Positions 7,078-16,353 of a DNA stretch of 64,000 bases are shown here, piece by piece. The position numbers were made by a program, and so were the translations under genes. The notes below the pieces were generated by a model that had not been told where the DNA came from, ran no database searches, and saw only the letters and a program-made list of their open reading frames with translations. Each line of letters begins with the position of its first letter. The first letter of the stretch is position 1. The stretch lies in sequence record SRR31156797_3690; one strand, given 5' to 3'.

Positions 7078-7734
7078 ATGATGGAAATGAAACTATTAAT
7101 TACCGGATTTGATCCATTTGGCGGAGAAGCAATCAATCCTGCCTTAGAAGCAGTGAAATTACTGCCAGATACAATTCATGGTGCACAGATCGTGAAAGCA
7201 GAGATCCCCACTGTATTTGGGAAATCAGCGGCGATCGTCGAAGAGAAAATTGAAGAGGTCCACCCAGATGTCGTCTTAAACATCGGTCAAGCGGGCGGCC
7301 GGTTTGCCATCTCACCAGAACGAGTGGCAATCAATGTGGATGATGCCCGGATTCCTGATAATGAAGGCAATCAACCCGTCGATGAAGCGATCCAAACAGA
7401 AGGAAAGCCTGCCTACTTCACACAACTGCCAATCAAAGCAATGGTAGAAAATATGAAAAAAGCAGGAATACCTGCAGCCGTTTCTAATACTGCTGGAACT
7501 TTCGTCTGCAACCACATCATGTATCAAGTACAATACATGATCGATACAAAATACCCTGAAATGAAAGGCGGTTTTATTCACGTGCCATTTATTCCTCAGC
7601 AAGTCGTCGATAAAGCAGGACAGCCTGCAATGAGCATCGAAGACATCGCCAAAGGATTAACTGCAGCAGTGGAAGCTATCGTTGATTATGCCGACAAAGA
7701 AGATTTAAAAGCGATTGGCGGCGCGATCCATTAA
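7078..7734 (+). CDS. pcp: Pyroglutamyl-peptidase I
   Basis: [29 protein letters not shown] (catalytic Cys), GGFIHVP; true start may be 7081 or 7087. Confidence 0.95.
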
Positions 7735-7781
7735 TCATTGAAGGACATCCTTTCGAGGACAAAACAAAAGTTCTTAAAATG

Positions 7782-7820
7782 AAAAGACCTGATCAGTAAG
7801 CATGCGATCAGGTCTTTTTT
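7782..7820 (+). terminator. Intrinsic terminator after pcp
   Basis: AAAAGACCTGATC...GATCAGGTCTTTTTT. Confidence 0.85.
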
Positions 7821-8082
7821 GTCTGAATTTGATAAGAAATCATCCTTGTTTTCTGCATGTTTACTTTTCTATCAGACATTTCTCATTTTGATGACTGAAA
7901 TGAAAAAAGCAGACAGAAAATGAATGTAAGTTACATTTAACCATGTTTTTTTATTATTTTTTTCGCTTTATTTCTTATAAATAAAGAAAGGAAAAATAGC
8001 ATTTAACGAATGTTTGATGAGAGTAAGGTAAGTAAATACCAAGAAAACTTTCTTCCAAAGGTGTTTTTTATCGAAAAAGGGA

Positions 8083-8111
8083 TTGCTTTTTTAATAATTA
8101 TTAATTAAAAT
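8083..8111 (+). promoter_or_regulatory. sigma-A promoter of oppA; spacer holds the candidate TldR target
   Basis: TTGCTT (8083-8088)-17bp-TAAAAT (8106-8111); the spacer contains TTTAA followed by TAATTAT. Confidence 0.7.
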
Positions 8112-8136
8112 CTTATCTAACTTCAGAAATCGAATG

Positions 8137-8151
8137 ATTATTCTGAAAATT
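8137..8151 (+). promoter_or_regulatory. Putative CodY box in the oppA leader
   Basis: ATTATTCTGAAAATT, 13/15 match to AATTTTCWGAAAATT; opp genes are typical CodY targets. Confidence 0.6.
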
Positions 8152-8175
8152 AATTCAATTAAGGGGTAGGACAGG

Positions 8176-9837
8176 ATGAAAAATAAATGGGCCTATGGTT
8201 TAGTAGCTGTGTGTGGCGTGGTGTTAGCCGGCTGTACAACAGGCGGAACAAATAGTTCAAGCAATGACACAGCAACTAGCGGCGATAGCAACGCAGAACA
8301 AGTATTTAACGTAGTGGTTTCACAAGAAATGCCAAGTGCGGATCTTTCATTAGCAACCGATACGATCAGCTTCAGTGCATTGAACAATGTATATGAAGGC
8401 CTGTATCGTTTGGATGCTGACAGCACACCACAACCTGCTGGTGCAGCTGAAGCAGCTGAAGTCAGCGAGGATGGACTAACTTACAAGATCAAATTGCGTG
8501 AAGATGCGAAATGGTCAAATGGTGACCCTGTTACAGCAGCGGATTATGTTTATGGCTGGCAACGGACGGTCAAACCTGAAACTGCATCAGAATATGCGTA
8601 TCTATTTTCACCAGTCAAAAATGCGGATGCCATCACAGCTGGCGATACGGATCCATCAGAGCTAGGCATCAAAGCAGTGGGGGATTACGAATTAGAAATC
8701 ACCCTAGAAAAAGCAACACCTTACTTTGATTACTTATTAGCATTCCCATCATTCTTCCCACAAAATCAAAAAGTAGTGGAAGAAAATGGCGATCAATATG
8801 CATCAACAAGCGACAATGCCGTTTATAATGGACCATTTGTCCTGACTGGTTTTGATGGACCAGGAACGGATACAGAATGGGCTTATGAAAAGAACGATCA
8901 GTATTGGGACAAAGACACTGTTAAATTACAAACGATCAACGTAAGCGTCGTGAAAGAATCCTCAACTGCCTTGAATCTTTTCCAAGATGGTCAAGCAGAT
9001 GATGTCATCCTAACAGGTGAACTGGCGCAACAGATGGCTAACGACGAAGCATTCGTTTCTCAACCAGAAGCAACGACTTCTTACTTAGAATTGAATCAAC
9101 GTGATGAAGATTCACCTTTCCGTAACGAAAATTTGCGTAAAGCAATCTCTTATGCGATCGACCGTGATGCCTTAGTAACATCGATCTTAGGTGATGGTTC
9201 AATTGCTTCAAGTGGTTTGGTTCCAGAAGGCATGACTTTCAGCCCTGGCGATCATACAGACTTCACAGAAGCAGCTGGCAGCGTCATTAGCTACGATCAA
9301 GAGAAAGCAAAAGAATATTGGGAAAAAGCCAAAGAAGAATTAGGAATCGATTCATTAGAATTTGATATCTTAGCTTCTGATACAGACTCAACCAAGAAAA
9401 TCATTGAGTACTTGCAAGACACGATCGAAAAAACATTGGACGGTGTGAAAGTCACGTTAAGTCCAGTTCCATTCTCTGTTCGTTTGGATCGTTCAAATGC
9501 GGGTGATTTTGATACAGTAATGGGCGGTTGGGGTGCTGACTATGCCGATGCAAGTAGCTTTACTGACTTGTTTACGACAGGTAACTCATACAACCGTGGT
9601 CAATGGAGCAGTGAAGAATACGATGCAGCTGTAAAAGCAGCAGGTACGACCAATGCCAATGACCCTGACAAACGTTGGGAAGATTTAGTCAATGCAGAAA
9701 AAATCATTATGAATGAACAAGGTGTCATTCCAGTTTATCAAAAAGCGGAAGCACATTTACGTGCAACAAAAGTCAAAGGTGTTGTTGCTCACGCAGCGGG
9801 CGCACAATACGACTACAAGTGGACATCAATCGAATAA
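8176..9837 (+). CDS. oppA: Oligopeptide ABC transporter substrate-binding lipoprotein OppA
   Basis: Lipobox VLAGC; SBP family 5 signature (YEGLYR...SEDGLTYKIKLREDAKWSNGDPVTAADYV), NGPF, GWGADY. Confidence 0.93.
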   Translation: MKNKWAYGLVAVCGVVLAGCTTGGTNSSSNDTATSGDSNAEQVFNVVVSQEMPSADLSLATDTISFSALNNVYEGLYRLDADSTPQPAGAAEAAEVSEDGLTYKIKLREDAKWSNGDPVTAADYVYGWQRTVKPETASEYAYLFSPVKNADAITAGDTDPSELGIKAVGDYELEITLEKATPYFDYLLAFPSFFPQNQKVVEENGDQYASTSDNAVYNGPFVLTGFDGPGTDTEWAYEKNDQYWDKDTVKLQTINVSVVKESSTALNLFQDGQADDVILTGELAQQMANDEAFVSQPEATTSYLELNQRDEDSPFRNENLRKAISYAIDRDALVTSILGDGSIASSGLVPEGMTFSPGDHTDFTEAAGSVISYDQEKAKEYWEKAKEELGIDSLEFDILASDTDSTKKIIEYLQDTIEKTLDGVKVTLSPVPFSVRLDRSNAGDFDTVMGGWGADYADASSFTDLFTTGNSYNRGQWSSEEYDAAVKAAGTTNANDPDKRWEDLVNAEKIIMNEQGVIPVYQKAEAHLRATKVKGVVAHAAGAQYDYKWTSIE

Positions 9838-9866
9838 TCACGAGTAGTTGACTTGAAATGCCGAAG

Positions 9867-9900
9867 AAAAGGCTGGGACAATTTCTTGTCTCAGCCTTTT
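9867..9900. terminator. Bidirectional terminator between oppA and the DUF3899 gene
   Basis: AAAAGGCTGGGACAA-TTTC-TTGTCTCAGCCTTTT between convergent genes. Confidence 0.85.
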
Positions 9901-9937
9901 GCTTCTCATTTCAATGAGTAAAAATATAAGAGTGAAA

Positions 9938-10273
9938 TTAACTAGTAGCAATCATTAAAAAGAGCAATGAAAGGAATAACAAGAAGACACCAGGCCATAA
10001 CCAAAAGGCGTAACTCTGTTTGCCGACTTGGGATAATTTCAGATAATCTGTTTTATTTTTGGAAAAAGCTTTCTTCATGGAATATTGAAAATGGTCAAAG
10101 AAACCAGAAGCAAATACCCATAAAAAACCGCCAATGATCAAAAAGAACAGCGCCCACAAGAAAAGGGCATCTGAAAGAGCTGCTATGGAAAATTCATTTT
10201 TTATGGCTAACCATCCGCCAGAAATTGCGAGGCATAGGAGGGGTATGAGCCCACTACTTTTTTTTATTTTCAT
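9938..10273 (-). CDS. DUF3899-like small membrane protein
   Basis: 111 aa with 3 hydrophobic segments and an SGFFDHFQYS motif; RBS AAGGAG; typical neighbour of opp loci. Confidence 0.8.
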   Translation of the reverse strand: MKIKKSSGLIPLLCLAISGGWLAIKNEFSIAALSDALFLWALFFLIIGGFLWVFASGFFDHFQYSMKKAFSKNKTDYLKLSQVGKQSYAFWLWPGVFLLFLSLLFLMIATS

Positions 10274-10357
10274 GATCTGACTCCTTTTTAATGATTCGTA
10301 CTATGTTAATTTACATAATTATTGAATAGAAGTCAAAATACTTAAGGGGGAAACTGC

Positions 10358-11299
10358 GTGAACAGCTTTTTGAAATATTTATTGAAACGAGTGTTCTACA
10401 TGGTCTTAACATTATGGCTGATTGCCACGATCACCTTTTTCTTGATGCAATTTTTGCCAGGAACACCATATACGAATGCTGAAAAATTAAGTCCAGAACA
10501 AATTGCCTTGCTAAATGAGCAAGCAGGATTGGACAAACCGATCATTACCCAATATTGGCTTTATTTGACCAATCTACTAAAAGGTGACTTTGGGATCTCT
10601 TTCCAATTTAAAAACCAGCCAGTAGCGAATTTATTATCAGGAAGAATCGGACCTTCACTGCAACTAGGACTACAAGCGATCATCTTTGGTACCTTCTTTG
10701 GGATTATTTTAGGAACGATCTCTGCAATGAAGCAAAATACTTGGGTCGACACAACGTCTACCTTAGTGGCGATCTTAGGGCGTTCGATCCCTAACTTTGT
10801 CTTTGCCGTTTTGCTGCAATATATTTTTGCCATCAAACTAGGGATCTTGCCGATTGCCAAGTGGGAGACCTTTGCCAGCACGATCTTACCGACCGTCGCC
10901 TTAGCGATGTCGCCGTTAGCGGATTCCGCTAGGTTTATTCGAACCGAGATGGTGGAAGTGCTGCATAGTGATTATGTCGAGTTGGCACGAGCAAAAGGTT
11001 TGAGCCGCTGGGAAATTGCCTTCAAGCACGGTTTGCGGAATAGTTTGATTCCGTTATTGACGTTGTTAGGACCGCTAGCTGTCGGTTTGATGACTGGTTC
11101 CCTTGTCGTAGAAAATATTTTTGCGATCCCGGGTATCGGTGAACAGTTCGTAAAATCAATCATGACCAATGACTATCCGACGATCATGGCGGTAACGATC
11201 CTTTATTCCGCAATGTTGGTCTTTGTGATTCTTGTTGTTGATATTTTATATGGAATCGTTGATCCGCGGATCCGAGTTTCAGAAGGGAGTCGTGGCTAA
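10358..11299 (+). CDS. oppB: Oligopeptide ABC permease OppB
   Basis: PGTP, GLDKP, GDFGIS, ARAKGL EAA-like loop, VENIFAIPGIG. Confidence 0.93.
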   Translation: MNSFLKYLLKRVFYMVLTLWLIATITFFLMQFLPGTPYTNAEKLSPEQIALLNEQAGLDKPIITQYWLYLTNLLKGDFGISFQFKNQPVANLLSGRIGPSLQLGLQAIIFGTFFGIILGTISAMKQNTWVDTTSTLVAILGRSIPNFVFAVLLQYIFAIKLGILPIAKWETFASTILPTVALAMSPLADSARFIRTEMVEVLHSDYVELARAKGLSRWEIAFKHGLRNSLIPLLTLLGPLAVGLMTGSLVVENIFAIPGIGEQFVKSIMTNDYPTIMAVTILYSAMLVFVILVVDILYGIVDPRIRVSEGSRG

Positions 11300-12342
11300 T
11301 GGCAGAGAAACCTTACACAGCAAATGATGTTGCTGCCATCGATGCAGCCAAATTTCAACCGTTACAAAAAAATACCAATGAAGAGCGTGAAGCGATCGCA
11401 ACCCCCTCATTAACCTTTTTCCAAGATTCGTGGCGTCGTTTGAAAAAGAACAAAGCCGCTGTTTTCTCAATCGTTTTGTTGCTGATCATTATTACGATCT
11501 CAATCATTACCATTTTTGTCTCGCCACATGATCCGACCGCGCAAAATGTGACCTTTACAAATCTGCCGCCGAAAATTCCCGGTATCAACATCAATGGCTT
11601 AAACGGCTATGCGATGGTGGGAGGCGAGCTAGTAGATAAGTATGCAGCTGCCAATGTACCTGACGGGACATATTTCCTTTTAGGAACGGATGGATTAGGT
11701 CGTGACTTATTGAGTCGTCTATTTGTAGGGACACGTATCTCCTTATTGATTGCGTTTATCGCAGCGATGCTAGATATCATCTTTGGTGTAACCTATGGTT
11801 TGATCTCTGGTCTTTTAGGTGGACGAATCGATAATGTGATGCAACGTTTCCTAGAAATCTTATCAGGTATTCCCAACTTAGTGGTAATGATCTTAATGCT
11901 GGTAGTTTTCGAACCTGGGATCTTCTCGATCGTGGCAGCAATGGCGATCACTAACTGGATTCCAATGGCGCGGATCGTACGGGCCCAAACAATGAAACTA
12001 AAAGATCAGGAATTCGTTTTAGCCGCAACAACGCTGGGGGAAAGCCGTCTCAAGATTGCGATGAAACACGTATTACCAAATATTTCCAGCGTGATCATCG
12101 TACAAATGATGTTCAGTATTCCCTCGGCGATTTTCTTCGAGGCCTTCCTAAGCTTTATTGGGCTAGGATTAAAACCACCTTCAGCATCTTTAGGGATGCT
12201 ACTAAGCGATGGCTACAAAACCTTCTTGTTCCTGCCTTACCAAATGTGGGTACCGGCTGTGACCTTGTCTGTGATTATGATTGGGTTCAATTTGCTGGCA
12301 GACGGTTTGCGTGATGCCTTTGATCCGAAAATGAAAGAGTGA
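11299..12342 (+). CDS. oppC: Oligopeptide ABC permease OppC
   Basis: WRRLKKNK, LGTDGLGRD, EFVLAA, FLSFIGLG, DGLRDAFDPK. Confidence 0.93.
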   Translation: MAEKPYTANDVAAIDAAKFQPLQKNTNEEREAIATPSLTFFQDSWRRLKKNKAAVFSIVLLLIIITISIITIFVSPHDPTAQNVTFTNLPPKIPGININGLNGYAMVGGELVDKYAAANVPDGTYFLLGTDGLGRDLLSRLFVGTRISLLIAFIAAMLDIIFGVTYGLISGLLGGRIDNVMQRFLEILSGIPNLVVMILMLVVFEPGIFSIVAAMAITNWIPMARIVRAQTMKLKDQEFVLAATTLGESRLKIAMKHVLPNISSVIIVQMMFSIPSAIFFEAFLSFIGLGLKPPSASLGMLLSDGYKTFLFLPYQMWVPAVTLSVIMIGFNLLADGLRDAFDPKMKE

Positions 12343-12347
12343 TTGCT

Positions 12348-13394
12348 ATGAAAAAAGTCTTAGAAGTGAAAAACTTAGAAATTTCTTTTGACACCTTTGC
12401 TGGGAAAGTCCAAGCAATCCGCGATGTCAGTTTCGATCTATACAAAGGAGAAACCTTGGCGATCGTGGGCGAATCCGGGAGCGGCAAGTCCGTGACAACC
12501 CGCAGTATCATGGGGTTGTTAGCCAGCAATGCCAATGTCGATAATGGCCAGATCCTCTTCAATGGGACGGACATTTTGAAAAAATCCGAAAAAGAACTGC
12601 AAAAAATCCGTGGCAAGGAAATCGCCATGATTTTCCAAGATCCAATGACTTCACTAGACCCAACGATGCCGATTGGCAAGCAAGTGGCAGAGTCATTGAT
12701 GAAGCACAACAAAATCAGTAAAAAAGAGGGCTTGCGACAAGCGTTGGAATTACTGAACCTTGTCGGCATCCCGAATGCTGAGAAACGCTTGAAAAATTAT
12801 CCGCATCAATTTTCGGGTGGTCAGCGGCAGCGGATCGTTATTGCGATCGCGCTGATCTGTTACCCACAGATCTTAATTGCAGATGAACCGACGACTGCAT
12901 TGGATGTAACGATCCAAGCACAGATCTTAGAGTTATTAAAAGATATTCAGAAGAAAATCAATTCGTCCATCGTCTTTATCACCCATGACTTGGGTGTCGT
13001 TGCCAATGTGGCTGACCGAGTAGCCGTGATGTATGGTGGGAAAATCGTCGAAGTGGGCACCGCAGAAGAAATCTTCTACAACCCGCAACATCCATACACC
13101 TGGGGCTTGTTGGGTTCGATGCCAACGTTAGAAGGGACAGGCGATCGTTTGTACGCGATTCCTGGTTCACCGCCGGATCTGTTGGACCCGCCAACCGGGG
13201 ACGCTTTTTATCCACGAAACGAATTTGCTTTGCAGATCGATGCAGAACAGCAACCGCCGTTCTTTGATGTTTCACCGACCCACAAAGCAGCAACGTGGCT
13301 GTTAGCGCCGCAAGCACCGAAGGTAACTCCGCCGGATGAGATCTTGATTCGCTGGAAAAAATTCCAAGAAAAAAATACTCAGGCATCTGTCTAA
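12348..13394 (+). CDS. oppD: Oligopeptide ABC ATPase OppD
   Basis: [30 protein letters not shown]; alternative GTG start at 12339. Confidence 0.93.
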   Translation: MKKVLEVKNLEISFDTFAGKVQAIRDVSFDLYKGETLAIVGESGSGKSVTTRSIMGLLASNANVDNGQILFNGTDILKKSEKELQKIRGKEIAMIFQDPMTSLDPTMPIGKQVAESLMKHNKISKKEGLRQALELLNLVGIPNAEKRLKNYPHQFSGGQRQRIVIAIALICYPQILIADEPTTALDVTIQAQILELLKDIQKKINSSIVFITHDLGVVANVADRVAVMYGGKIVEVGTAEEIFYNPQHPYTWGLLGSMPTLEGTGDRLYAIPGSPPDLLDPPTGDAFYPRNEFALQIDAEQQPPFFDVSPTHKAATWLLAPQAPKVTPPDEILIRWKKFQEKNTQASV

Positions 13395-13408
13395 AGGAGG
13401 AGAAACGG

Positions 13409-14347
13409 TTGGAAAAAGTTTTACTTGAAGTAAAGAATCTCAAACAATATTTTAACGTTGGCCGCAAAGACGAAGTCAAAGCCGTCGATGATATCTCCTT
13501 CCAAATCTATGAAGGAGAAACCTTTGGTCTAGTAGGTGAATCCGGAAGCGGAAAATCGACCACTGGACGGACGGTGATTCGTTTGAATAATCCTACCGGA
13601 GGCGAAGTTCTTTTTGATGGACAAGATGTTATGAAAATCAAAGGCAAGAAACCGCTGGCTGATTTTCGCCGGGAAGTTCAAATGGTCTTCCAAGATCCTT
13701 ATGCCTCCTTGAATCCACGGATGAAAGTTCGCGACATTATTGCCGAAGGGATCGATATCAACGGATTAGCTAAAAATGAAAAAGAACGTAATGATCGGGT
13801 GGATGAACTCTTGCGAACCGTCGGACTAAACCCAAGTCATGGGACCCGTTATCCTCATGAATTTTCAGGGGGACAACGTCAGCGGATCGGAATCGCCCGA
13901 GCATTAGCCGTCGATCCAAAATTCATCATTTGTGATGAACCGATCTCGGCATTGGATGTTTCGATCCAAGCCCAAGTTGTCAACTTGCTGCAAGATCTGC
14001 AAGAAGAACATAAATTGACGTACTTGTTTATCGCCCATGATTTATCGATGGTCAAACACATCAGCGATCGGATCGGCGTGATGCACAACGGCAAACTGCT
14101 AGAAGTAGGAACCAGTGATGAAATCTATCATTACGGGGTCCATCCGTATACTGAAAGTCTTTTATCAGCGATTCCGCTGCCAGATCCTGACCATGAGCGT
14201 CAACGCAAACGGATCAAATACGTCAGCGAACCAAACGATAACCAAGAACGAGCAATGGAAGAGATCGCACCAGGACATTTCGTTTATGCCACGAAACAAG
14301 AAGCCAAGATCTACCAAGAAAAGTTAGCACAAAAAAAGGGGAACTAG
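13409..14347 (+). CDS. oppF: Oligopeptide ABC ATPase OppF
   Basis: [34 protein letters not shown] start behind AGGAG. Confidence 0.93.
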
Positions 14348-14377
14348 CGTCAAAGGTATAGGGAGTGTTAGGAGGAG

Positions 14378-15376
14378 ATGAAACTGGGTGTTTTAAAAGC
14401 ATACAAATTTCGGATCTATCCTAATGGACAGCAAAAACAGTTTTTCATCGAAACCTTCGGCTGTGTTCGGTTTACGTACAATCAACTGCTGGAGGCGAAG
14501 ATGGAGGAGCTGGCCAACAATGAAGCAAAGCAAGGGTTGACGCCAGCCAAACTAAAAAAGGAGTATCCTTTTTTGAAGGAGACCGATAGTTTGGCATTGG
14601 CGAATGCACAAAGGAATCTGGACCGAGCGTTTCGAAATTACTTTCAAAAGCGGGCTGGCTTTCCAAAAATGAAAACCAAAAAAAGTATTTGGCAATCGTA
14701 TACTACGAATAATCAGCAGCACACCATTTACTTTGAAGAGGATCAAATCAAGCTGCCAAAGCTCAAAACACTGGTTCCAGTAAAAAAGCATCGGGAGATC
14801 AAAGGGAAAATCAAATCGGCAACGATCTCAGCGAAAAACAATGAAGAGTTTTATATCTCGATTCTTTGTTTGGAAGAGATCACACCACTCCCGAAACAGC
14901 AAGCGTCTATCGCGGTTGTTTATGATCCGCAGCAGCTGATCAAAGCCAACCAATCGGTACCGGTCACTTGTGAGCATGCGATCCAAACAAAACAGAAGCT
15001 GACACGAGCAGAACGCAAACTTCAGGTGAAAGCTACGGCGGTCAAACGGAAAAAAATCCTTTTGACTCAGGCACGAAATTATCAGAAGCTAAAAGGAAAA
15101 GTCGCTCGCCTCTATCGTTTTCACTGCTGTCAAAAGCGGGAATTCATCGATCAAGTCAGTTATCATCTCGTAAAACAGTACGATACAATCTATTTGGAAC
15201 AAATTGCTGAAGAAACGGTTCTAAAAGCCGGTCATTACAGCATCAGCGATTGGCATCAGTTTGTTCGCAAAATCCAGTACAAAGCGCAGTGGTACGGCAA
15301 AGAACTGCGTTTTGTCACGTTGGACACGCAGGACCAACAGAAGCTAGAGCGGCTCTCAGGCGAAATGAGCAGCTGA
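14378..15376 (+). CDS. tldR: Nuclease-dead TnpB homologue (TldR-type RNA-guided repressor), oppF-associated
   Basis: IS200/IS605 TnpB N-terminus (KAYKFRIYPN..FGCVRFTYN, LKKEYPFLKE.DSLAL, GFPK.K, LPKLK); RuvC-I GIDLG replaced by AVVYD; RuvC-II Glu kept (DTIYLE); ends without the CxxC zinc ribbon or RuvC-III; strong GGAGGAG RBS 30 bp after oppF; no tnpA. Confidence 0.85.
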   Translation: MKLGVLKAYKFRIYPNGQQKQFFIETFGCVRFTYNQLLEAKMEELANNEAKQGLTPAKLKKEYPFLKETDSLALANAQRNLDRAFRNYFQKRAGFPKMKTKKSIWQSYTTNNQQHTIYFEEDQIKLPKLKTLVPVKKHREIKGKIKSATISAKNNEEFYISILCLEEITPLPKQQASIAVVYDPQQLIKANQSVPVTCEHAIQTKQKLTRAERKLQVKATAVKRKKILLTQARNYQKLKGKVARLYRFHCCQKREFIDQVSYHLVKQYDTIYLEQIAEETVLKAGHYSISDWHQFVRKIQYKAQWYGKELRFVTLDTQDQQKLERLSGEMSS

Positions 15377-15477
15377 TCTGCTTGAACTGGAAGGAACGCC
15401 AGGGATCGCCTAGGGTATAGAAAAAATCTTTATGATTTTTGTTTCTAGGAACCACGTTCACTAATTATGATTAACCA
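15377..15477 (+). ncRNA. omega-RNA-like guide RNA of the TnpB/TldR (scaffold to 15461, guide from 15462)
   Basis: CTGG/CCAG stem whose loop GAACG (15394-15398) pairs with CGTTC (15455-15459) as a pseudoknot; CCTAGGG/TTCTAGG and AAAAATC/GATTTTT stems; scaffold ends in GTTCAC like IS605-group right ends; guide TAATTATGATTAACCA; exact ends inferred. Confidence 0.75.
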
Positions 15478-15478
15478 G

Positions 15479-15522
15479 CAACCCCCTGCCAAACTATGGT
15501 TTAGCAGGGGGTTGTATTTTTT
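15479..15522. terminator. Terminator closing the guide RNA, shared with the convergent NrtR-like gene
   Basis: CAACCCCCTGCCAAAC-TATG-GTTTAGCAGGGGGTTG then TATTTTTT. Confidence 0.85.
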
Positions 15523-16353
15523 TTACATTTTATCACCTAAAAATGCGTCATTTAAGCGATAGATCTTTGAGGGACGCCCGATGCCAACGGGCTTTTCGCC
15601 GACCTCCGTAAAATATTGAAGCATGGATTTTTTAAAGTTGGAATGATCGATCATTTTAAAATCGATCCCTAAAAACTTGGCGAATACTTTACGGGCTTCC
15701 GTGATCGTAAAGTCTTTGCCTAACACAAGAAGCACTTGCGGCTCGTGCTCCATCTTATTGGCAACCCGTTTGAAGGCTTTGAGAATGATCGCGCTGTGGT
15801 CAAAAGCCAGCGTATCTTTTCCAACAGAGGCACCAGTCACCAGGTCAAGAATGATCTCGATCTCACCGCTGGTCAAATAGATTTGATTGGCTTTTCTTTC
15901 CAGAGAAAACCAGCGTACCTGATTCGCATCGTCCCCAGCACTTAAGGGCTCTTCACCAATAAATGCCAAATAGCTGACGGTGATTACCCACCCACGTGGA
16001 TCACGACCAGGGGTGCTGAAGGTGTGCAGCTGTTCGATGTTTTGTTTGGAGATAGTGACCCCGATCTCTTCTTGGGTCTCACGGATCACACTTTGACCTG
16101 TCGATTCATTCGGATTGACGAAGCCCCCCGGCAATGCCCAAGAATTGCGGAAGGGATGGCCTTTTCTTTGGATCAGCGCAATTTTGAGTTGTTCTTCTTC
16201 TTTGTTGTAACACATCAACACCATATCGACGGTTACGGAGGGTTTCTCGTATTTCGGCTGATCTTGTGCCTGATACCACGTAAGAAAGTCTGCTTCAGAA
16301 GCTTCTTTCTCATAGTAGTGTTTTTCAGCTGATTTTGAGGTAAATTCTTTCAT
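15523..16353 (-). CDS. NrtR-like Nudix hydrolase / wHTH transcriptional regulator
   Basis: PSVTVD, WALPGGFV..NES....IRETQEEIG Nudix box, RDPRGW, LAFDH, C-terminal NFKK and GRPSKIYR. Confidence 0.85.
   Translation of the reverse strand: MKEFTSKSAEKHYYEKEASEADFLTWYQAQDQPKYEKPSVTVDMVLMCYNKEEEQLKIALIQRKGHPFRNSWALPGGFVNPNESTGQSVIRETQEEIGVTISKQNIEQLHTFSTPGRDPRGWVITVSYLAFIGEEPLSAGDDANQVRWFSLERKANQIYLTSGEIEIILDLVTGASVGKDTLAFDHSAIILKAFKRVANKMEHEPQVLLVLGKDFTITEARKVFAKFLGIDFKMIDHSNFKKSMLQYFTEVGEKPVGIGRPSKIYRLNDAFLGDKM

Follow-up and report, generated by a model that had tools for sequence, protein, structure and literature searches.

The closest described systems to the one presented here are the oppF-associated TldRs of Enterococcus (bioRxiv 10.1101/2023.11.30.569447). 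According to the available part of that preprint, their TAM was obtained as TTTAA from ChIP-seq motifs together with related TnpBs, the guides are 9-11 nt long with a seed of ~6 nt as judged by ChIP-seq, and the predicted targets overlap the -35 and -10 elements of oppA on either strand. RIP-seq of the E. casseliflavus homologue (EcaTldR) indicated a variable guide length (same preprint, available part). A second preprint (bioRxiv 10.64898/2026.09.22.753285), likewise in its available part, describes a 9-bp heteroduplex by cryo-EM and a ~40-fold repression of oppA in E. faecalis V583 when TldR and guide RNA are overexpressed, and reports that deletion of tldR and the guide RNA gave no significant de-repression of oppA in standard culture. 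There the target lies downstream of the transcription start in E. faecalis and overlaps the promoter in E. faecium, and 2,125 assemblies were searched with TTTAA + TAATTATTT, mismatches being tolerated outside the 6-nt seed. RNA-guided DNA binding and repression of oppA have been reported in E. faecalis and with reporters in E. coli in the accessible text of these two sources. An earlier note, made from the letters of the present sequence alone, had given TTTAA as the TAM of oppF-linked TldRs and oppA promoters as their targets, and both statements are found in the available text of both preprints. The fliC_P-associated TldRs of Enterobacter prophages are likewise nuclease-dead relatives of TnpB with RNA-guided promoter repression; they differ in having the TAM GTTAT and a 16-nt guide, in being prophage-borne and in targeting the host flagellin promoter (available part of bioRxiv 10.1101/2023.11.30.569447).

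The DNA analysed here is a stretch of 64,000 nucleotides (the window), and judged by its sequence the source organism is a member of the Enterococcus casseliflavus group. With the protein genes named by Pfam, its order is oppA / antisense DUF3899 / oppBCDF / tldR / structured RNA / terminator, which is the order oppA / DUF3899 / oppBCDF / tldR / guide RNA of Efa1TldR, the V583 homologue, as far as the published text available describes it. The window's TldR shares 98% identity with the protein of E. casseliflavus NBRC 100478 and 99% with the one of E. innesii GAL7, and because of the former identity it is probably the same orthologue as EcaTldR of the 2023 preprint in its available part. Very probably the species has already been sampled in published work, and the site described below is most likely an instance of the published oppF-associated TldR system and in that sense already known; it would pass the TTTAA + TAATTATTT filter as given in the available part of the 2026 preprint.

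The window shares with the oppF-TldR of E. faecalis, within the accessible description of the latter, the predicted TAM TTTAA, a guide beginning TAATTAT, a target at oppA and 10 of 11 contact residues. In contrast to the E. faecalis type, the protein has 332 instead of 356 aa and is ~40% identical to it, and the guides diverge from position 8 on (G in the window, T in E. faecalis). In the window the target is on the coding strand, inside the predicted promoter spacer; the E. faecalis target, according to the published text available, is on the opposite strand and comes after the transcription start. The E. faecium AUS0004 locus resembles the window in that the predicted oppA promoter is overlapped by the TAM and the target, ahead of the transcription start (available part of the published description), although target positions 9-11 and the -10 hexamer differ from the window; loci L064-L074 of our sample have this AUS0004-like layout with TAATTATTCAT and the -10 TAAACT. 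For the source species itself, TldR binding and repression of oppA are what we infer by homology to the E. faecalis and E. coli experiments.

The probable target motif in the predicted oppA promoter

It is likely, and we hold this with good confidence, that the complex of TldR and guide RNA, encoded 6.3 kb further down at the end of the oppBCDF-tldR unit, has a genuine, selected natural target in the DNA of positions 8090-8101. On the + strand, a -35-like TTGCTT (8083-8088) is followed by one T, the putative TAM TTTAA (8090-8094), the sequence TAATTAT that equals guide positions 1-7 (8095-8101) and, after a spacer of 17 nt from TTGCTT, a -10-like TAAAAT (8106-8111). The earlier note had placed these elements in the oppA promoter and had drawn from them a perfect 7-nt seed match to a guide starting at 15462; the former are present base for base and the latter is identical over positions 1-7. 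Position 8 (8102) is a mismatch, T in the target and G in the guide, with agreement again at positions 9 (8103), 11 and 13. The partial pairing claimed beyond the seed can thus be seen in the window, but it is not conserved in the relatives. In the same way, the core 8091-8104 (TTAATAATTATTAA) forms a perfect palindrome and TAATTAT can be read on the - strand behind ATTAA, as had been pointed out, but this second reading is not a conserved one, the palindrome being kept in only 10 of the 36 opp-linked loci.

In the mechanism that we propose, TldR, a TnpB presumed to have lost its nuclease, would read TTTAA at 8090-8094 in the duplex, and the guide RNA starting at 15462 (UAAUUAU...) would pair over 7 nt (8095-8101) in the direction from the TAM toward the -10. 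As the guide reads like the coding strand, its partner would be the - strand, which is the template of oppA. The bound complex would then cover the 17-nt spacer between 8083-8088 and 8106-8111 and exclude the sigma-A holoenzyme RNA polymerase, by which the OppBCDF transporter core, through its co-encoded repressor, would turn down its own cognate OppA.

The predicted oppA promoter at 8083-8111 owes its assignment to conservation across related loci, and the transcription start is a deduced one. The hexamers agree with the consensus at 8 of 12 positions (TTGCTT 3/6, TAAAAT 5/6), and the pair is absent from the output of a promoter consensus scan, which lists instead the overlapping TCGAAA-16-AATAAT at 8071-8098. 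Both hexamers are conserved in the related loci: column identity is at least 0.9 for TTG and most of the -10, as it is for the TAM and the seed, compared to 0.3-0.6 upstream of the -35. RNA data were taken from 4 of 21 listed runs; two metatranscriptome contig sets span the whole 7.7 kb at flat depth and may contain DNA, and two raw-read runs gave just 3 and 6 partly fitting reads; transcript ends could be seen in none of the four.

The intergenic region (7735-8175) between a pyroglutamyl peptidase gene (7078-7734) and oppA is 441 nt long with 72% A+T. The 12-mer of TAM and seed, TTTAATAATTAT, has a single copy in the window when both strands are searched. Its expected number per window is 0.06 and at least one copy appeared in 6 of 100 dinucleotide shuffles, close to the earlier rough estimate of 0.05 per 64 kb. 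When the 441-nt region alone was shuffled by mononucleotides, the 12-mer was obtained in 778 of 200,000 shuffles and the 11-mer (TAM plus 6 nt) in 2,147 of 200,000.

The nearest of the genomes compared, G001, which shares 84% of the window's words, was used as a stand-in for searches on a genome scale. The 11-mer is not a common word there: it has 3 copies, one of them the oppA promoter site, against 7 for the reversed control. By these counts TAM plus seed showed no genome-wide enrichment in G001, and neither did TAM plus seed with one mismatch and A or T allowed at TAM position 5 (396 against 478 in the control). A second target for a long guide was also looked for in G001 and rejected, as a search for the 16-mer from 15462, allowing up to 3 mismatches, returned 44 hits and its reversed control 45; the sole perfect match is the guide RNA gene, and both matches with 2 mismatches break the seed. 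The other two TTTAA+TAATTAT sites of G001 (L006 1501-1512 and L007 1501-1512) are likewise situated at loci for nutrient uptake. A POT/PTR2-family peptide transporter gene begins 219 nt downstream of one of them, in an intergenic region that also carries a CodY-box-like AATTTTCAGAAAAAT, and the other falls at the very 3' end of a gene for a branched-chain amino-acid permease (livH-like), within its final codons and 56 nt before the next permease gene. With 3 sites against 7 in the control, these two may be chance matches.

The TldR protein and its guide RNA

The oppA gene (8176-9837, +, ATG at 8176) codes for an oligopeptide-binding lipoprotein of 553 aa (Pfam SBP_bac_5, E 1.1e-85). Behind it are a terminator-like hairpin on the + strand (9867-9900; 15 pairs, then a T-rich tail), the DUF3899 gene on the - strand (9938-10273; Pfam PF13038, E 3e-11) and, again on the + strand, oppB, oppC, oppD and oppF (10358-14347; Pfam BPD_transp_1 twice, ABC_tran with oligo_HPY twice). 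The tldR gene (14378-15376, +) starts 31 nt past the oppF stop, and no terminator-like site was found between the two. The earlier view that oppA is transcribed separately from oppBCDF-tldR fits this arrangement. Because oppA has its own terminator-like hairpin and an antisense gene precedes oppBCDF-tldR, the repressor would be made together with the permease genes and act back on oppA.

The 332-aa product of tldR is a TnpB homologue, and it lacks the C-terminal zinc-finger/RuvC-III part. Pfam finds HTH_OrfB_IS605 (58.8 bits, E 3.6e-16), and OrfB_IS605 and the TNB domain stay below their cut-offs. With phmmer, the protein matches ISDra2 TnpB (PDB 8h1j, 8bf8) at E 4e-33, residues 7-310 aligning to ~5-320 of 408-410. 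As the alignment stops at about residue 320 of ISDra2 TnpB, the window protein lacks the segment that bears the zinc finger and the final RuvC motif. The catalytic triad of ISDra2 TnpB is, we presume, D191/E278/D361, and judged by the alignment the segment with the third catalytic Asp is absent. Of the remaining motifs, the first RuvC motif GxDxG is degenerate (VVYDPQ vs GIDLG) and the second acidic residue is retained (E274). The TNB profile gives the same picture, since the window protein covers positions 1-22 of 60 and a related enterococcal TnpB positions 1-60. To such a TnpB, of 383 aa with a full TNB domain and an IS200-type TnpA neighbour, the window protein is 46% identical. Sequence comparison therefore points to a domesticated TnpB, presumed to be nuclease-dead. 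No TldR structure was found in the PDB at E up to 0.01, where the matches are TnpBs only.

The N-terminal HTH/WED-REC part and the RuvC core of the window protein are homologous to those of IS200/IS605 TnpBs (ISDra2; enterococcal copies L082-L092), and with the enterococcal copies it shares the predicted TAM TTTAA and a guide RNA right end ...GTTCAC that is followed by the guide. The TnpB nucleases are encoded next to a Y1 TnpA, possess a full TNB/zinc-finger and take their guides from variable flanks, whereas the window gene has none of these and occupies a fixed chromosomal place. The context of tldR is non-transposon and constant, directly downstream of oppF and with no TnpA, unlike that of the related IS copies. 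In those 11 copies, which come from two genomes, TTTAA is directly 5' of the element in 11/11, and the right end ...GTTCAC (...GTAGTTCAC) is followed by unrelated flank in all of them. TTTAA and the fixed right end thus indicate the TAM and the scaffold-guide junction, as is normally deduced for TnpB. The TAM of the window TldR is predicted from these relatives together with the contact residues: when the window protein was aligned to that of a locus in which each of the 11 residues named for Efa1TldR is found at its own number, 10 of the 11 TAM/heteroduplex contact residues were kept, including Q116 (Q113 here) and L75 (L72 here), and one was lost (V82 of Efa1TldR is R79 in the window protein). 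In E. innesii GAL7 (L005 8001-8995; the contig is also G004:C7), the match to tldR changes frame at about residue 225 and contains one stop, and neither the guide RNA nor the oppA target is damaged. Either tldR is a natural pseudogene there, or the assembly is in error.

The guide RNA follows tldR on the + strand. Its scaffold (15381-15461) may begin ~20 nt earlier, inside the end of tldR; the guide region TAATTATGATTAACCA (15462-15477) comes next and an intrinsic terminator (15478-15524; stem 15478-15515, T run 15517-15524) completes it, with a convergent gene for a Nudix/NrtR-like regulator (15523-16353) after the terminator. From scaffold end to terminator stem there are exactly 16 nt. In the predicted fold 15461-15477 are unpaired, the whole RNA has a z-score of -3.19, and compensatory changes are present in 6 of 14 predicted scaffold pairs. 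Searching with nhmmer, the scaffold was found after all 46 oriented sequences tested. Over the guide, on the - strand (15492-15464), there is an antisense sigma-70-like match (TTGGCA, 17 nt, CATAAT; 10/12) that is the best in 9800-15600. An RNA made from it would be complementary to the guide RNA, and the match may be due to chance.

From 15462 the sequence reads TAATTATGATTAACCAG, and the earlier placing of the guide boundary at this position agrees with three lines of evidence. Firstly, Rfam RF02841 (Ref70, 'Enterococcus sRNA 70') matches 15381-15473, if weakly (36 bits against a gathering score of 115); on the E. faecalis-type RNA (L099 8613-8722) it scores 117.6 bits, and its consensus ends CAC-UAAUUAUUA. 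Secondly, in the guide RNA alignment A1 of 53 distinct sequences (the window and 52 loci), the junction CAC+TAATTAT is invariant (53/53). Thirdly, the TnpB elements described above end on the same GTTCAC (11/11). The guide start at 15462 is deduced from the three together. The Rfam family Ref70 represents the E. faecalis type of TldR guide RNA; a literature search on Ref70 in Enterococcus found no link between the two. Past the seed, guide position 8 of the alignment is divided between G (33 sequences), A (12) and T (8), position 9 is A in 53/53, and positions 12-15 read AACC in 44-46 of 53, with mainly the 8 E. faecalis-type RNAs deviating. The guide tail (15470-15477) is conserved without matching the oppA target, and by analogy with the published guides the mature guide is probably ~9-11 nt long.

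Conservation of the proposed target and the competing explanations

A protein search of 134 family genomes found a relative in 103. Around the best match, ~9 kb were fetched in 44 distinct genomes chosen by hand down the ranking, and 8 lower-scoring genomes and 4 extensions were added. In 35 of the 44 genomes tldR comes after the genes for OppA (at least 67% identical) and OppF, with TldR identity going down to 47%; together with the window these make 36 opp-linked loci, which are related, not independent, and hand-picked from the 103 genomes with a match. In every one of them (36/36), TTTAA+TAATTA is on the + strand at a fixed offset before the first oppA. TTGnnn and one base are followed by TTTAA, an 11-nt target and then TAAAAT, TACAAT or TAAACT, the -35 of one locus (L080) being off the contig end. 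In our sample of enterococcal genera, no other form is as frequent as this promoter-spacer one. The remaining nine genomes comprise two with tldR behind another ABC transporter, where the 11-mer is on the - strand upstream of the binding-protein gene, and seven with no opp genes within 9 kb. In the E. faecalis-type loci the same 11-mer is on the - strand, downstream of the -10 in the 5' leader (8/8), with an 8-nt match to a guide reading TAATTATTA... The 11-mer keeps its identity while its strand and its position in the promoter change, which argues that it is recognised as a unit, as a target of TAM plus seed predicts. Covariation of guide and promoter, another check that had been proposed, was not found: both seeds are invariant, and there are no compensatory guide-target changes within the promoter-spacer architecture.

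A genus-level group (g5; L052, L055, L060-L062, L066 and L069; L106-L108, L110 and L114) has tldR and guide RNA away from the opp genes. In the 5/5 genomes of this group that were searched, TTTAA+TAATTA stands ~340 nt before the matched part of a binding-protein gene whose product is 27-29% identical to OppA and which is hundreds of kb from tldR. The match reaches 9 nt in 3 of the 5 genomes (guide TAATTATAAC, target TAATTATAAA), and a second conserved site, ...CCCTTTTCTT TTTAA TAATTATATG..., is found in all 5.

Among the other explanations, the one that survives best is that the site is a real docking site of TldR which is weak or conditional in this clade, with OppA mainly under other regulators, for example CodY at 8137-8151. 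The 7-nt pairing and the fixed mismatch at position 8 would then give low occupancy unless TldR is induced. Such a reading draws on the extent of the guide match, which is contiguous over 7 nt in 25 loci and over 6 nt in 11, with position 8 matching in 0/36, and also on the CodY-box-like sequence conserved downstream. That sequence, ATTATTCTGAAAATT (8137-8151, +), is located in the presumed oppA 5' leader and has 2 mismatches to the CodY-box consensus. A weaker element, AACTTCAGAAA, is just upstream of it (8119-8131). Both are kept in most of the related oppA promoters, so oppA is probably under a second, protein-based nutritional control besides TldR; window-wide, CodY-box-like matches are not above chance (15 vs 10.3 expected). 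Against weakness of the site speak the strict retention of TAM and seed across the opp-linked loci, implying selection, and the finding that a TAM with a seed of ~6 nt sufficed for ChIP-seq peaks of oppF-associated TldRs (bioRxiv 10.1101/2023.11.30.569447, in its available part). We regard a weak or conditional site as unlikely compared to the selected target proposed above.

Less probable still is that the conserved A+T-rich spacer serves as a protein operator or matters to the promoter in itself, for example through its curvature or the palindrome TTAATAATTATTAA, and that it resembles the guide by coincidence or as a relic. The perfect palindrome of 8091-8104 does resemble many protein operators, and the region is rich in A+T. 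However, it is not the palindrome but TTTAA+TAATTA on the + strand that all the opp-linked loci have in common, and a motif that is found on the other strand in the 5' leader of the E. faecalis-type loci, and also upstream of other binding-protein genes where tldR is unlinked, does not easily fit either a simple promoter element or a protein operator of palindromic form. That A+T-rich intergenic DNA gave rise to the match by chance is very unlikely: the 11-mer does appear in ~1% of the intergenic shuffles and has two further copies in G001, but the position is kept in all 36 loci over 13 GTDB genera' worth of divergence and the target sits at the very gene cluster that encodes the guide.

Significance for the oppF-TldR circuit

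The preferred reading, a selected TldR target in the oppA promoter, leaves two features of residual interest: the fixed mismatch at position 8 in the promoter-spacer architecture and the conserved guide tail that has no target. Since pairing is held at 6-7 nt, position 8 stays unmatched and the untargeted tail is conserved, it could be that selection keeps TldR binding weak and TAM-dominated, tunable instead of tight, and that the guide tail serves another purpose (3' processing or termination). We put this forward as a tentative and rather doubtful idea; neither deliberately weak binding nor another purpose of the guide tail was found in the available parts of bioRxiv 10.1101/2023.11.30.569447 and 10.64898/2026.09.22.753285.

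A recently described RNA-guided transcription factor together with its target was in this case correctly recovered from raw sequence alone. The analysis documents the E. casseliflavus group with the form of the oppF-TldR circuit in which the target is inside the promoter spacer, the natural match being the TAM and 6-7 nt. If TldR switches off the cognate OppA, one OppBCDF permease could be re-equipped with other binding proteins, as is proposed in the available part of bioRxiv 10.64898/2026.09.22.753285.
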